A stretch of DNA of 64,000 nucleotides from an uncultured Chlamydiales bacterium (GCA_963699155.1 OY969414.1:2155757-2219756), one strand, 5' to 3'. Positions 42,757 to 50,739 are shown, numbered from the stretch's first letter. Numbers and translations: made by a program. The notes: generated from the letters alone by a model not told the origin.

Positions 42757-44379
42757 ATGGGGGCTCTCTTACAAAAGCAGTTTCTTATTTTCGCTTGCTT
42801 TCTTTTTTGTTCGGCTGAGGCTTCTTGCTTTCTCAGTCTCGAAGATGCCATCAAAGCGACATTACAAAATCAATGGTCTATTCAACTTTCTGAACAGCAA
42901 ACTGATGTGCAAATAGGTCTCCTAAGGCAAGCTGCAGGCGCTTTTGACGTTATGCTCAGCAGTAACTTCTCCCGACTCTATCAAGTTGATCTACAATCAC
43001 CCTCGGGCGCGAAATCTGATTTTCTGGGCAGTATCACGCAGACAAACCTCCAACTTCAGAAACTCACCCGTTTGGGAACACTTTACACTTTGAGCTATTC
43101 CAACACCAATGTAGTCAACCCCTTTACCATTCCGATAGACCCTCCTCGAATGGATTCGACATTGATCGGCGCTTCAGTAATACAGCCATTAATGAGGAAC
43201 CTTTTTTATAGTCCAATAACCATTCTCGAAAAGACCCAATTTTTAGCCTATCAAGCTTCGCTCTATCAAAATGTGCAGAACATTGCAGCTGCCGTTGCAG
43301 CTACTTTGACAGCCTATTGGCAAGTCGTTGGTAATAAACTGATCCTAGATGCCTTAATCGAACAAGAAAAAATGCTACAACGGTTTGTAGACTATGCTAA
43401 AAAGCTAGTCGAAGAAGATCAAAAAGGATCTGCATCGTTATACCAACCTCAAGCCAATCTAGCAACTACCGTTCAAAGCCGCCTGAATGCCGAACAAATC
43501 CTCCGCACTTCCTATTATGCGCTCTTACTGGCGATGGGTGAGGTAGGTCCTTGCGAAGATGAAGATATCTATCTCAACATTAAAGTAGAGGGCTTTCCTG
43601 AACATGAAAATCTGATGAAATTTGATAGATGCTGTTATGACAAAACGAGGGAGTTGATTCCCATTCAAAGGATGGATCTGGTGGCTTCTTATCTCTTTGA
43701 AGATATCGCGGAGCTCAATCTCCAGTCAGCGGTCAATTCAGCCCTTCCACAACTCAATCTGAACGCCAGTTACGCTTTGAAAAATACCAATACAGGCACC
43801 CATCGCAGCGCCCTTTACGAATCATTCCCAGATAAATATAAGCCGGAAAAAGACTATACCCTAGGCTTTACCCTCAACTATCCCTTCTGTAATGATGTCG
43901 CTAAAGGTCTTATTAAACAGACAAAGGCACTCCTCTTTCAGACTCAAATTTCGACCAATCAACTCGAAAATCAGATTATTACCAATTATAAAACAGCCTT
44001 TACGCTCAATAACTCACTCGTAGATCAGCATGAAGAGGCTGTGATTGCAACCCGGGATAATCGAGCTGCGTTGGATGCCGAATTTACTAAACTGACAGTG
44101 GGTCTGAGCTCCTGGTTTGACGTGCTCGGCTTAGCTACAGATACGATTACGGCTGAAATAACCGAATATAACATTGATACGACTTATATGCAGAACTTGG
44201 TCCAGCTCCATTTCCTGATCGGAGATCTTGTGAGATGGGATGGTCATTCGTGCTTCATGGAAATCGCCGATTTCCAAAAGTTTTGTGTGGACGCTTCAGA
44301 TCCGGTAGCCAATCAAGAAAATAAGGATTCCAATAATAAAGGTTTAGAATATGAACGGTACCCCAGAAACAGAGGATAA
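42757..44379 (+). CDS. TolC-family outer membrane protein
   Basis: signal peptide; LSLEDAIK..L, QPLMR, LPQLNL, GLSSWFDVL; first gene of the exporter operon. Confidence 0.8.
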   Translation: MGALLQKQFLIFACFLFCSAEASCFLSLEDAIKATLQNQWSIQLSEQQTDVQIGLLRQAAGAFDVMLSSNFSRLYQVDLQSPSGAKSDFLGSITQTNLQLQKLTRLGTLYTLSYSNTNVVNPFTIPIDPPRMDSTLIGASVIQPLMRNLFYSPITILEKTQFLAYQASLYQNVQNIAAAVAATLTAYWQVVGNKLILDALIEQEKMLQRFVDYAKKLVEEDQKGSASLYQPQANLATTVQSRLNAEQILRTSYYALLLAMGEVGPCEDEDIYLNIKVEGFPEHENLMKFDRCCYDKTRELIPIQRMDLVASYLFEDIAELNLQSAVNSALPQLNLNASYALKNTNTGTHRSALYESFPDKYKPEKDYTLGFTLNYPFCNDVAKGLIKQTKALLFQTQISTNQLENQIITNYKTAFTLNNSLVDQHEEAVIATRDNRAALDAEFTKLTVGLSSWFDVLGLATDTITAEITEYNIDTTYMQNLVQLHFLIGDLVRWDGHSCFMEIADFQKFCVDASDPVANQENKDSNNKGLEYERYPRNRG

Positions 44380-47789: not shown

Positions 47790-50739
47790 CCAAACCATTT
47801 CTTCTGCTCTCGATTCACTCCTACAGATGGCCATCAAGGTAGAGATCCTGCCGAATACACGCTACTTCCTCACAAATCCTGGAATGGTCTGGTTTGTAGG
47901 TTCAGAAACCAGTGGAGATATTTTTGCCTGGGAAAAAGACAATGAAAATTTCATTCCTCAATTTCTTCTCGATGCCAATCCTGGTGAGATGATTTTCGGT
48001 GCTTCTTTAGATAGTAGTGAAGAGCCGAGCAATATCTTTTACTACATTTGCTCGAAACCTACAATTCTCTATATGGTCTCTCTGAATGCTCTCCGAGCCA
48101 CACTCCATCTGGATCCCGATGCGAGCCATTTTGTCGCAAACCAGTTAGAAAGATGGACAGGAAGACTCCTTACTCATTTGACGAGAACAAAAGCCACAAC
48201 AGGGCTGAAAGAATTTGCGATCGGCTCCTCTACCTCTCTCACCGCCGGAGAAAAAGCAAAAGTGCAATTCATTATTGACCCTGAAAGAAAAGAGAGAGTG
48301 GCTTGGATTGAACTCCTTCAAGGAACCGTTGCCTGGGCTGGTAATTCCCTTCTCACTTTAACGCCGGAAGAGCACGTTTTCTACCCCATGACCTTCTTCT
48401 TCTGGATCGAAGCCGTAACAGATGCAAAAGTGGCTTGTCACACAACCTTAGAAGCGATTGAAAGAAATGAACTTTGGGATGGAATTTATCATCTCCATCG
48501 AAAAATCTTCCCCTTTTTCGATGCACAGAAGCTGGAAGATGAAAAGCTCGCCGCAGAAAAAAGCAAAAAGAAGCGAGAGGTCGAAGCGGAGACAACTCAA
48601 GAATCGATCTATACACTCGGATCACTTTTTGAATCTAAACTTGCCTATGTACCCTCAAAAGAAGGTGGAGCGCTTTTTAATGTCTGTGATCAGATTGGCC
48701 AATTGATCAAAGTGAAAATGGTCCCAGCGAGCGGCACCTTTGCGACCGCTGAAGATGAGGTGCGGGAGATCGCCAATTACTCCTCCGTATTTTATCGAAA
48801 GATCTCTTTGAAAGAGAAGTGGTGGGAAAATTGCCTCTACCCTCTTGTAGGATTTTATGGCGAAAAGCAGACACCGGTTGCCCTGATCAATATTTCCGCT
48901 ACAAAATTTCAGTTTCTCAACCCTGAGACCATGAAGAAAGAGCTGATTACTTCGACGAATGCTTCACAATTTTCACCAACGGCATTTGTCTTTCATCCCT
49001 CTCTAAATGAGCCTAAGGTCACCTTTTTTAAAATGATGAAATTCGCCTATCGTGAGGCTGGTAAAGAGAGTTTTGTCTTTCTGATTCTGGCAATCCTTTC
49101 GGGCTTGGTCAATCTATACATGCCCTTTGCTATGAAAACACTCTTTGATAGTTTAACCGCGACAGCAAATATCCATTTGCTCGTCCAGCTGACTATCGGT
49201 GCGATTTTAGCTGCGCTTAGTTTATGGATTTTCTCCATCACAAAAGCCTTTGCGGTCCAACGCTTCAATGGCATCTCCAATAACAAATTGATGCTGGGGC
49301 TTTGGGGTCGTGTTTTAAACTTTCCCGTCTCCTTCTTTCGCCAGAAATCGGTGGGTGAACAGATCAACCAGTTTGAGTCGGTCGTTGCTGTCCATTCCAC
49401 AATCAATGATTATCTTGTAAGCTCCTTTTTTTCGACTATCTATGCCATTTTTTACTTCATCCAAATGATTACCTTTAGCCCTATTTTGAGCCTTACAGCT
49501 CTCATTTCATTTCTCGTTCCCATCGCCATTTTCTGCGTCAGTTCCTATTTTGAAGTGGTTCTTTTCAAAAGAATTATCGAACTCAGTGGCGTTATCGAAG
49601 GATATGTCATCCAACTCCTTGCTGGGCTAAGCAAAATCCGTGTCGCTGGTGCCGAAAGCCGTTTTTTTAAAATCTGGTCAGGGAGATTCGCAGAAAAAAA
49701 GAGAGCCTATCTTCGCTATCAGAAAGTGGCCATGGTGACCTCTTTCACTTCATCTATTTTCCCATTGGCTGCTACTGTCGTGATGTATGCCATTGCCCTT
49801 TACCTTTTCAAAAAGCAGACATTGGAGGGCAAACAGGATCTCTCCACAGGTCAGTTTGTCGGCTTTGCCAGTGCTTTTGGACTCTTCATATCCAACTCTT
49901 TATCCGTATTAGATACCATCTTCGCCGGCTTTAAAATTCGCCCCCTTTGGAAGAATGCGCAATCGCTCGTCCAACAACCCCTGGAAGTCAGTTCAGAAAA
50001 AGATAAGGCACCGCCTTTACAGGGAAAGGTGGTCCTCGACCATGTCTCTTACCGCTATAGCCCAAATGAAGAATTGACTCTCAAAGATGTCACCATCCAG
50101 GCCCTTCCGGGCGAGATGATTGCAGTCATCGGCCCCTCCGGTGCAGGAAAATCGACTTTAGTCCGCCTTCTTTTGGGTTTTGAATCGCCAGAAAGTGGAA
50201 CCATCACATATGACGATAAGGATCTCAATGAAGTTGATCCCCGCTCCATCCGCTCGCAAGTCGGAACGGTTTTACAGAACGCAGCTCTCATTGCTGGCAG
50301 CATCTACGACAACATCGTTGGAAGCGCTACCTTTCCAGCTGAAGCGATCGATCGCGCCATCCACTTTTCCGGCTTTGAGGAAGACCTCAGTCACCTACCG
50401 ATGGGACTCAATACGATCGTACCGATGGGTGGAGGCACCTTTTCAGGAGGCCAGCGCCAACGCCTCTTGCTCGCCAGAGCACTCGTCTCTTCTCCCAAGA
50501 TTCTCATTCTCGATGAAGCAACCAGCGCTCTCGACAACAAAACCCAAGACATCGTCACCCACCATCTCGACCGCCTCCATGTCACTCGCATCGTCATCGC
50601 CCACCGCCTCACCACCGTCAAGAATGCTGACCGCATCTTCGTCCTCGAAAACGGCCACGTCGTCCAAGTCGGCACCTTCAAGCAGCTCTCCGCCCAACAA
50701 GGCCTCTTCCTCTCCATGCTCAAACGCCAAACCCTTTAG
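47782..50739 (+). CDS. NHLP export ABC transporter subunit 2 (permease/ATPase with long N-terminal extension)
   Basis: KIRVAGAESRFF..W, GPSGAGKST..RLLLGFE, FSGGQRQR, DEATSALDN. Confidence 0.92.
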   Translation: MSNQTISSALDSLLQMAIKVEILPNTRYFLTNPGMVWFVGSETSGDIFAWEKDNENFIPQFLLDANPGEMIFGASLDSSEEPSNIFYYICSKPTILYMVSLNALRATLHLDPDASHFVANQLERWTGRLLTHLTRTKATTGLKEFAIGSSTSLTAGEKAKVQFIIDPERKERVAWIELLQGTVAWAGNSLLTLTPEEHVFYPMTFFFWIEAVTDAKVACHTTLEAIERNELWDGIYHLHRKIFPFFDAQKLEDEKLAAEKSKKKREVEAETTQESIYTLGSLFESKLAYVPSKEGGALFNVCDQIGQLIKVKMVPASGTFATAEDEVREIANYSSVFYRKISLKEKWWENCLYPLVGFYGEKQTPVALINISATKFQFLNPETMKKELITSTNASQFSPTAFVFHPSLNEPKVTFFKMMKFAYREAGKESFVFLILAILSGLVNLYMPFAMKTLFDSLTATANIHLLVQLTIGAILAALSLWIFSITKAFAVQRFNGISNNKLMLGLWGRVLNFPVSFFRQKSVGEQINQFESVVAVHSTINDYLVSSFFSTIYAIFYFIQMITFSPILSLTALISFLVPIAIFCVSSYFEVVLFKRIIELSGVIEGYVIQLLAGLSKIRVAGAESRFFKIWSGRFAEKKRAYLRYQKVAMVTSFTSSIFPLAATVVMYAIALYLFKKQTLEGKQDLSTGQFVGFASAFGLFISNSLSVLDTIFAGFKIRPLWKNAQSLVQQPLEVSSEKDKAPPLQGKVVLDHVSYRYSPNEELTLKDVTIQALPGEMIAVIGPSGAGKSTLVRLLLGFESPESGTITYDDKDLNEVDPRSIRSQVGTVLQNAALIAGSIYDNIVGSATFPAEAIDRAIHFSGFEEDLSHLPMGLNTIVPMGGGTFSGGQRQRLLLARALVSSPKILILDEATSALDNKTQDIVTHHLDRLHVTRIVIAHRLTTVKNADRIFVLENGHVVQVGTFKQLSAQQGLFLSMLKRQTL

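Follow-up and report, generated by a model that had tools for sequence, protein, structure and literature searches.

A known-type NHLP peptide exporter and a dispersed set of doubled-leader precursors in the genome of an uncultured chlamydia

The exporter operon and the other exporters of the genome

We analyzed a stretch of 64,000 nt (hereafter the window) from the genome of an uncultured Chlamydiales bacterium from soil (GCA_963699155.1, OY969414.1:2155757-2219756), which carries at 42757-50739 an operon coding for a tripartite peptide exporter, similar to type I secretion systems, of the kind associated with nitrile hydratase-like leader peptides (NHLP). Coordinates are positions in the window unless marked as genome. 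The operon consists of four intact open reading frames (ORFs), which overlap by 29, 17 and 53 nt, the last overlap being reduced to 8 nt if the second ATP-binding cassette (ABC) protein, ABC2, starts at the ATG at 47782:

42757..44379, + strand, TolC-like outer-membrane factor, 540 aa; Pfam OEP 31.4 bits (cut-off 22)
44351..45655, + strand, HlyD-type periplasmic adaptor of the NHLP system, 434 aa; TIGR03794 199 bits (cut-off 156.2)
45639..47789, + strand, C39-peptidase/permease/ATPase exporter ABC1, 716 aa; TIGR03796 910.8 bits (cut-off 853.3)
47737..50739, + strand, ABC2 partner, 1000 aa (TTG start) or 985 aa (ATG at 47782); TIGR03797-like

The TolC-like protein has a signal-peptide-like N-terminus and also matches TIGR01844, below the cut-off of that family (52 bits versus 225, E 5e-14). 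The alignment of the adaptor with TIGR03794 spans residues 21-413 and the protein has one N-terminal membrane helix. ABC1 is aligned with TIGR03796 over residues 6-710, scores 125 bits with Peptidase_C39 and matches PCAT1 (PDB 4ry2) over its full length (E 2e-97). Its C39 domain aligns with LahT150 (PDB 6mpz, E 5e-41; about 60% identity by eye) and with ComA (8hf4), and in this alignment Q12, C18, H90 and D107 occupy the catalytic columns; the Gln, Cys, His and Asp were placed by the residue numbers of the ComA catalytic site. Walker A, Walker B, signature motif and H-loop are present in both ABC proteins, the signature being LSGGQ in ABC1 and FSGGQ in ABC2. ORFs, family scores and C39 alignment together confirm a preliminary description of this locus, which had recognized four overlapping intact genes (TolC, HlyD, C39-ABC and ABC2) with the catalytic Cys, His and Asp.

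ABC2 scores 685.6 bits with TIGR03797, against a cut-off of 709.4, over model positions 3-685 of 686, and this is by far its best family. It begins with two cyclic-nucleotide-binding-like barrels and a long helix, followed by a C39-like domain and then by the membrane domain and the ATPase. Residues 1-320 gave no Pfam match even at E 10, cNMP_binding included. The N-terminal extension (about 310 residues) is conserved in 12 other aligned chlamydial homologues, and an AlphaFold model of this front end built on the same alignment (mean pLDDT 81) contains two beta-barrels, a long helix and an alpha/beta domain. The top Foldseek matches of the barrels were the tandem cyclic-nucleotide-binding domains of PKA-R/PKG (probability 1.00, E 7e-8), with a query-normalised TM of only 0.16-0.22, as can be expected when the query is a multi-domain protein. 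The domain preceding the membrane domain aligns at the position of C39, and is probably non-catalytic since its Cys was found, by eye, in only 8 of the 13 chlamydial homologues. This architecture is not new: the available text of Wang et al. 2011 (PMC3140520) describes a cyanobacterial transporter of "long type", extended at its N-terminus by about 300 residues. A membrane-anchored class III adenylate/guanylate cyclase with HAMP is encoded at 27493-29499 (- strand), 13 kb upstream of the exporter; it is a possible source of signal for the cyclic-nucleotide-binding-like domains, through which the pump may be regulated.

A second intact exporter was found at genome 568-573 kb. Its HlyD has 282 aa and its ABC1 717 aa (903 bits); its ABC2 (752 aa) lacks the regulatory front end, and no TolC gene adjoins the set. 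Remnants of a third exporter are present in the window:

31756-32616, - strand, ABC2-like ATPase piece (residues 720-998); similarity to ABC2
32559-33701, + strand, ABC1-like piece (residues 322-709, 42% identity, in-frame stops); similarity to ABC1

These two pieces correspond to the decayed paralogous exporter that had been reported earlier. An assembly artefact was considered and rejected for this remnant, because both pieces lack their N-terminal halves and they lie on opposite strands. Assembly errors are nevertheless present in this genome. The rpoC gene (genome 1241462-1245680) contains at least three frame changes and one in-frame stop, being broken into five reading-frame segments; the upstream rpoB is intact. 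The frame changes in rpoC are most likely indel errors in the assembly. The four-gene operon is unaffected by such errors and is open throughout.

Precursors, cores and the search for maturases

A search of the genome with TIGR03793 gave 30 domain matches in 17 ORFs. Taken as whole proteins, 16 of the 17 precursors reach the curated cut-off of 50.9 bits and the remaining one scores 49.3. No Nif11 leader was found in the genome. A single NHLP domain is present in four ORFs, including the only one of the window and one adjoining the second exporter; the 13 others contain two tandem NHLP domains, followed by one tail and one cut site. Cleavage sites are distributed as follows: in 13 cases a canonical Gly-Gly was found, in 2 cases a Gly/Ala variant, and in 2 cases no site. 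The precursor genes are scattered singly among housekeeping genes over the genome; dispersed substrates had been proposed in the preliminary description from two ORFs of the window:

19784..20185, + strand, single-leader NHLP precursor, 133 aa; TIGR03793 56.4 bits (cut-off 50.9), Gly79-Gly80
33857..34033, - strand, 58-aa ORF with a Gly-Gly-like motif; unsupported as gene or cargo

The first ORF is a genuine NHLP precursor, over the family cut-off and with a Gly-Gly site, and its product is predicted to be cut at this site and exported. The second one was rejected as cargo: it has no family (Pfam at E 10; NCBIfam at 0.01), and neither a paralogue in the genome nor a homologue in the congeners examined (G147 and G322) was found. 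While the trio with TolC was correctly recognized in the earlier account, the 16 further precursors and the second exporter, all outside the window, had been overlooked.

A structural model of one doubled precursor (mean pLDDT 72, pTM 0.67) contains two confident helix-helix-hairpin units (residues 1-126, pLDDT mostly 84-96), the tail and core being of low confidence. The fold of the doubled leader can be superposed on whole nitrile hydratase alpha subunits over 141-153 columns (TM about 0.42, probability 1.00); since the alignment spans whole subunits, the doubled leader approaches the size of this parent protein. A word-indexed protein search with a doubled-leader precursor recovered only the query itself. 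A profile built from the 13 doubled precursors gave, among 1.84 billion representative proteins, 1852 matches at E 1e-10 or better. Among the best 150 of these, 113 were matched in one stretch over both domains and 10 belong to the genome studied here. In the 140 others of the best 150, a pattern-based search found a Gly-Gly-like site in 116 cases, with 64 Cys-free cores and 33 cores containing at least 2 Cys. Twenty representatives were looked up and gave six clusters with an organism-named member (Calothrix, Pseudanabaenaceae, Usitatibacter, Chloroflexota and Candidatus Wallbacteria), annotated as NHLP precursors or hypothetical proteins. As the named clusters span several phyla, the doubled-leader architecture is widespread and already present in databases. 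No mention of doubled NHLP leaders was found in the accessible portions of the literature on NHLP with chlamydiae, proteusins or class II bacteriocins. Three proteins, P0013 (406 aa), P0017 (311 aa) and P0012 (325 aa, from a Calothrix metagenome-assembled genome), were matched by the profile in two or three separate stretches, which suggests precursors with three or more NHLP domains; some of their cores are Arg/Trp-rich or Gly/Tyr-rich.

The 15 cores with a recognizable site are 22-55 aa long, contain 0-1 Cys and have a net charge of 0 to +3. They are often glycine-rich and hydrophobic; 5 of the 15 contain a membrane-helix-like stretch, small-xxx-small motifs are present in many of them, and several end, by eye, in a similar amphipathic tail. 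When the core and the Gly-Gly junction were compared with TIGR03949 (class IIb bacteriocins of the lactobin A/cerein 7B type), the precursors at genome 897577 and 2090040 scored 22.3 and 26.1 against a cut-off of 21.5. The core of the 19784 precursor (53 aa) is hydrophilic, Trp-rich and Cys-free, with no TIGR03949 match; that of the precursor beside the second exporter is also hydrophilic and Trp-rich, unlike the remaining cores.

Enzymes able to modify these cores were then considered. Neither YcaO nor LanC-like proteins were found genome-wide (0 in both cases). The 11 radical-SAM proteins are all housekeeping enzymes (MtaB, MiaB, RimO, MqnC, MqnE-like, HemW, HemN, LipA, two RlmN and EpmB). 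No Trp halogenase was found over the cut-off, the only match being one of 17 bits to an FAD motif. PoyD epimerase was found in none of 401 genomes of the phylum, a weak negative as the search gave no positive control signal. Around the precursors, in neighbourhoods of about 5 kb (extended to 11 kb on one side for the precursor at genome 565444), 161 ORFs of 70 aa or more were called, of which 142 were scanned against Pfam; those left out comprise 5 ORFs running off the fetched stretches and 14 shorter than 88 aa. The 142 ORFs correspond to housekeeping functions, transporters and insertion sequences (IS), with no maturase and no recurring enzyme. In summary, no cognate maturase of peptides that are ribosomally synthesized and then modified post-translationally (RiPP) was found for the thiazole/oxazole-modified microcin (TOMM), lanthipeptide, proteusin and thioamide classes, LanB, ATP-grasp and GNAT enzymes not having been searched genome-wide. 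The absence of maturases, claimed in the preliminary description, thus holds for YcaO, LanC-like, non-housekeeping radical-SAM and Trp halogenase families, and no conventional maturase cluster was found among these families elsewhere in the genome.

The products are most likely unmodified and membrane-active: none of the tested maturase families was found, two cores match class IIb bacteriocins, and the cores have few Cys, are neutral or cationic and in many cases are hydrophobic with much glycine. The reading that we prefer, with a joint probability of about 0.6, is that an NHLM exporter of known type cuts and exports the unmodified, membrane-active, bacteriocin-like cores of about 15 of the 17 NHLP precursors. 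The tail of the leader would dock in the C39 domain of ABC1, the peptide would be cut after Gly-Gly, and the core would then pass across both membranes through the ABC1/ABC2-HlyD-TolC conduit, in which ABC1, with its active C39 domain, probably pairs as a heterodimer with ABC2 and its degenerate C39-like domain. The pump of the window and the second exporter would together serve about 15 precursors, that at 19784 included. The large folded leader, doubled in 13 genes, may keep hydrophobic cores soluble and inactive in the cell until export. Such a chaperone model fits what has been described for NHLP leaders, namely folded, thermostable domains to which C39 proteases bind at the C-terminal L(X)4L tail (PMC12537861).

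Related loci and competing explanations

The preliminary description had proposed a probable intracellular chlamydia. The genome is a single contig of 2,399,326 bp with 47.5% G+C. The closest relative of its C39-ABC protein, and the only close match in a collection of named genomes, comes from a metagenome-assembled genome titled "uncultured Chlamydiales bacterium" (74% identity). A locus of a congener (L035) has the same order redoxin-TolC-HlyD-ABC1-ABC2, with proteins 58-74% identical (redoxin 72%, TolC-like 63%). The chlamydia-specific CT021 family, a TLC nucleotide transporter, a CesT chaperone, a secretin and a NEL-LRR E3 ligase are encoded near the precursor genes. The contig is thus chlamydial, as indicated by the Chlamydiales match with shared gene order and by the CT021, TLC and CesT families, and this affiliation, with the gene families present, suggests an intracellular lifestyle. 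Small shares of the sequence words of the genome were found in three soil-metagenome DNA runs of one study, and no RNA run was among those listed.

The distribution of the system was analyzed in 400 sampled genomes of the phylum, representing 212 genera, among which related genomes are not independent. The C39-ABC subunit (E ≤ 1e-150) is present in 65 of the 400 genomes (44 over the curated cut-off) and 42 of the 212 genera, and NHLP leaders (E ≤ 1e-6) in 51 genomes (39 over the curated cut-off) and 31 genera. Both were found in 37 genomes, the exporter only in 28, the leader only in 14 and neither in 321. In a family of 1.0-1.2 Mb genomes, neither exporter nor NHLP leader is present (0 of 29).

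Six exporter or NHLP loci of relatives (G099, G031, G387, G392, G114 and G053) were compared. G099 and G031 contain arrays of single-leader precursors with YcaO and TfuA, ThiF and LanM, and G387 and G392 a YcaO fused with a dehydrogenase of the ThcOx/nitroreductase type. G114 (locus L046, G114:C46, 10654-13973) has five consecutive doubled-leader NHLP genes with long Gly/Ser/Thr/Asn-rich cores; they adjoin a TolC-adaptor-ABC1-ABC2 set and are flanked by two GNAT acetyltransferases. This locus could be an acylated-peptide cluster. G053 has one precursor and no evident maturase. In the congeners G147 and G322 a fused YcaO and LanM lie beside NHLP genes, and none of the 21 doubled-leader profile matches in these two genomes covers both leader domains. 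In G159 and G315, doubled leaders with short Cys-rich cores of TOMM type were found beside YcaO. The pump family is therefore common in environmental chlamydiae, normally within conventional RiPP clusters; in other chlamydiae, both congeners included, TOMM and LanM clusters accompany the exporter, which speaks against the preliminary interpretation. The present species is the odd one, with no maturases found and an expanded set of doubled leaders with bacteriocin-like cores. In the closed chlamydial genome G099, the NHLP/LanM/YcaO array is separated from the exporter by a nonribosomal peptide synthetase of 1807 aa (condensation, adenylation, carrier and thioesterase domains; locus L047, G099:C1, 11552-16975), accompanied by a phosphopantetheinyl transferase and a thiolase.

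These relatives bring in a first alternative, in which the same pump and precursors handle cores that are modified before export by unrecognised or undescribed enzymes, the products being true RiPPs. NHLP leaders are best known from modified peptides, as far as the accessible parts of two studies go (PMC2887384, PMC12537861); other chlamydiae, and both congeners, pair NHLP with enzymes of the YcaO, TfuA, LanM or ThcOx type; the doubled-leader genes of G114 stand between two GNATs; and many proteins near the precursors of the present genome have no Pfam family. Against this, neither YcaO, LanC-like nor non-housekeeping radical-SAM proteins were found, no acetyltransferase or recurring enzyme occurs within about 5 kb of the 17 precursor genes, the cores have 0-1 Cys and no low-complexity stretch rich in Ser, Thr or Cys, and two of them exceed the cut-off of an unmodified bacteriocin family. 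We consider a hidden maturase unlikely.

The same comparison can be read as a loss, by which the TOMM and lanthipeptide clusters of the congeners disappeared and left a pump and precursors that are decaying. The third exporter is already broken, 2 of the 17 precursors have no cleavage site, YcaO and LanM of both congeners were not found here, and IS481 and DDE transposases lie downstream of the operon. We nevertheless judge a relic very unlikely. Two exporters are fully open with intact catalytic and ATPase motifs, in an assembly that shows frameshifts even in rpoC, and 15 precursors have open frames and Gly-Gly-type sites. Moreover the 13 doubled-leader genes are not leftovers of congener clusters, since 0 of the 21 congener matches cover both domains.

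A third explanation concerns the target, which would be the host or inclusion membrane, or else a signal of the developmental cycle, rather than competing bacteria. The phylum is one of obligate intracellular bacteria, and TLC, CesT, NEL-LRR E3-ligase and CT021 families are present in the genome. No conserved immunity gene was found beside the precursors, the cyclic-nucleotide-binding-like domains of ABC2 and the class III cyclase suggest regulated release, and ComA, a related C39 exporter, exports pheromones. On the other hand two cores match a bacteriocin family, and antagonistic peptides usually show such a pattern, a large and hypervariable set of paralogues that share a conserved leader; the reach of such a two-membrane pump to host membranes has no support here. 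A host or signalling role appears quite unlikely, and bacteria may be the target of the exported cores.

Several observations weigh against the export of unmodified bacteriocin-like cores. The bacteriocin-family match concerns only 2 of the 17 precursors, both outside the window, and the core of the window precursor is hydrophilic and Trp-rich and so differs from the hydrophobic cores. No immunity gene family is shared by the neighbourhoods of the precursors, the sole similar pair of neighbours being two copies of an IS ORF; small two-helix membrane proteins occur beside 3 precursor loci and are mutually unrelated. Nor was any conserved family of adjoining small proteins (partner peptide or immunity gene) found at the precursor loci. 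Maturases lie beside NHLP genes in both congeners and in four other chlamydiae, and as chlamydial NHLP genes adjoin maturases even when their leaders are doubled (G159 and G315), the leader type alone does not imply an unmodified product. An unrecognised or undescribed enzyme family could modify the cores, ABC2 is 24 bits under the curated cut-off of TIGR03797, and the frameshifts of the assembly bring some noise, in both directions, into calls of intactness for single genes.

The preliminary description considered the system as the best candidate of the window for an undescribed one. This was not borne out: the system corresponds to the NHLM export cassette described by Haft et al. 2010 (PMC2887384), which is present in 65 of the 400 genomes. 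In that paper, as far as its accessible text goes, the exporter families are defined by genome-wide co-occurrence with NHLP genes. The likeness extends to the same TIGR03794, TIGR03796 and TIGR03797 families in the same order, to a peptidase on one ABC protein only, and to Gly-Gly NHLP precursors forming paralogous families in the same genome; the same text mentions some species that have NHLP genes and in which neither TOMM nor lanthionine enzymes were identified. The present system differs by a TolC-like gene in the operon, by an ABC2 under the family cut-off, by 13 of 17 precursors with two domains and by cores that are not rich in Cys, Ser or Thr. Its host is a chlamydia, whereas under "chlamydia group" the accessible part of the paper lists only Victivallis.

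Cyanobacterial bacteriocin clusters and the prochlorosin arrangement (PMC3140520, available text) resemble it in having one exporter for many precursors, some of them distant, a three-gene transport cassette with C39-ABC and HlyD, and NHLP or N11P precursors of up to 164 aa. They differ by the usual presence of LanM or other tailoring enzymes, by cores rich in Gly, Cys, Ser and Thr and by free-living phototrophic hosts, and doubled NHLP leaders are not described in that text. Chlamydial RiPP clusters (G099, G031, G387, G392, G147 and G322) have the same exporter family and NHLP leaders, even within the same genus, but have YcaO with TfuA, fused YcaO and dehydrogenase, ThiF or LanM near single-leader arrays; these enzymes were not found here, where the precursors are scattered singly. 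In chlamydiae, antiSMASH calls of "RiPP-like" (PMC9666466) and "proteusin" (PMC13229535) appear in the parts of the literature consulted.

With LahT, PCAT1 and ComA (6mpz, 4ry2, 8hf4) the C39 domain and catalytic residues of ABC1 are shared. LahT, PCAT1 and ComA are single-gene homodimeric transporters of Gram-positive bacteria; the exporter studied here also has an adaptor, an outer-membrane channel and a second ABC partner that is probably peptidase-dead. The two cores over the cut-off of TIGR03949 resemble class IIb bacteriocins in being glycine-rich, hydrophobic, cationic and unmodified in type. The lactobin A/cerein 7B family belongs to Firmicutes, with leaders of about 20 residues and adjoining partner peptides and immunity genes, whereas here the leader has 130-165 residues and no partner or immunity gene is evident.

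The operon itself is thus the known NHLP/Nif11 export cassette, and the new aspect is the combination observed at the level of the genome: two pumps, 17 scattered precursors (13 with doubled leaders), class II-like cores and no maturases found, whereas both sister species have them. A broader reading, doubtful as a joint claim, is that doubled NHLP leaders identify secreted precursors of a separate and widespread class, which would need no maturase and whose pump would be under cyclic-nucleotide control. The folded leader would then be a chaperone and safety catch built into the precursor of a membrane-active core, and its reader a heterodimeric pump under that control, in which one C39 domain is live and the other dead; an obligate intracellular chlamydia might use such an arsenal inside or around its host cell, the tailoring enzymes of its sister species having been discarded.

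Chlamydiae are usually seen as streamlined intracellular parasites. A genome of 2.4 Mb with two peptide pumps and 17 cargo genes implies that the bacterium truly invests in antagonism or signalling. The three species of the genus form a natural experiment, in which one pump family accompanies thiazole/oxazole and lanthipeptide precursors in two species and apparently unmodified peptides in the third. The pump is ordinary; the doubled leader, found in several phyla and annotated only generically, could serve as a natural tag that keeps hydrophobic peptides soluble, and as a handle in the mining of unmodified antimicrobial peptides.

Neighbouring genes and other features of the window

The following features surround the 19784 precursor and the exporter operon:

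17975-18910, + strand, ATPase of an ABC-2-type transporter pair; Pfam ABC_tran
18907-19692, + strand, permease of the same pair; Pfam ABC2_membrane
20263..20571, + strand, small 102-aa protein, about two membrane helices (hydropathy count); no family found
42140..42727, + strand, redoxin/AhpC-TSA-type thiol oxidoreductase; Pfam Redoxin 83.7 bits
50896..50908, + strand, terminator-like hairpin about 160 bp after ABC2; consensus scan, number of sites not above shuffled expectation

The ABC-2-type transporter pair (17975..19692) lies directly upstream of the 19784 precursor, at 92 bp, and is a possible immunity pump. The 102-aa protein is encoded 78 bp downstream of the same precursor and could be an immunity protein. 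The redoxin gene ends 30 bp upstream of the TolC-like gene and may be co-transcribed with the exporter operon, which does not imply a role in export. A promoter consensus scan gave 7 sites, against 14 expected from shuffled sequences.

Directly downstream of the operon are an IS481-family transposase (51476-52597, + strand) and a DDE_Tnp_1 transposase (52967-53947, - strand). On the other side, between kdp genes and the redoxin gene, a protein resembling class D beta-lactamases and the BlaR1 sensor domain is encoded at 41315-42088 (- strand; NF012161 202 bits, cut-off 250). A secreted protein of 144 aa (25037-25471, + strand) contains many Cys and repeated segments rich in Cys, Tyr, Gln, Val and Pro, with no Pfam family, and may be a cysteine-rich envelope protein of chlamydial type. 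Finally, two tandem sets of quinol/cytochrome oxidase genes were observed at 4958-8351 and 9950-13799 (+ strand), each with COX2-like, COX1 and COX3 genes and the second also with COX4; a UbiA-family prenyltransferase follows.

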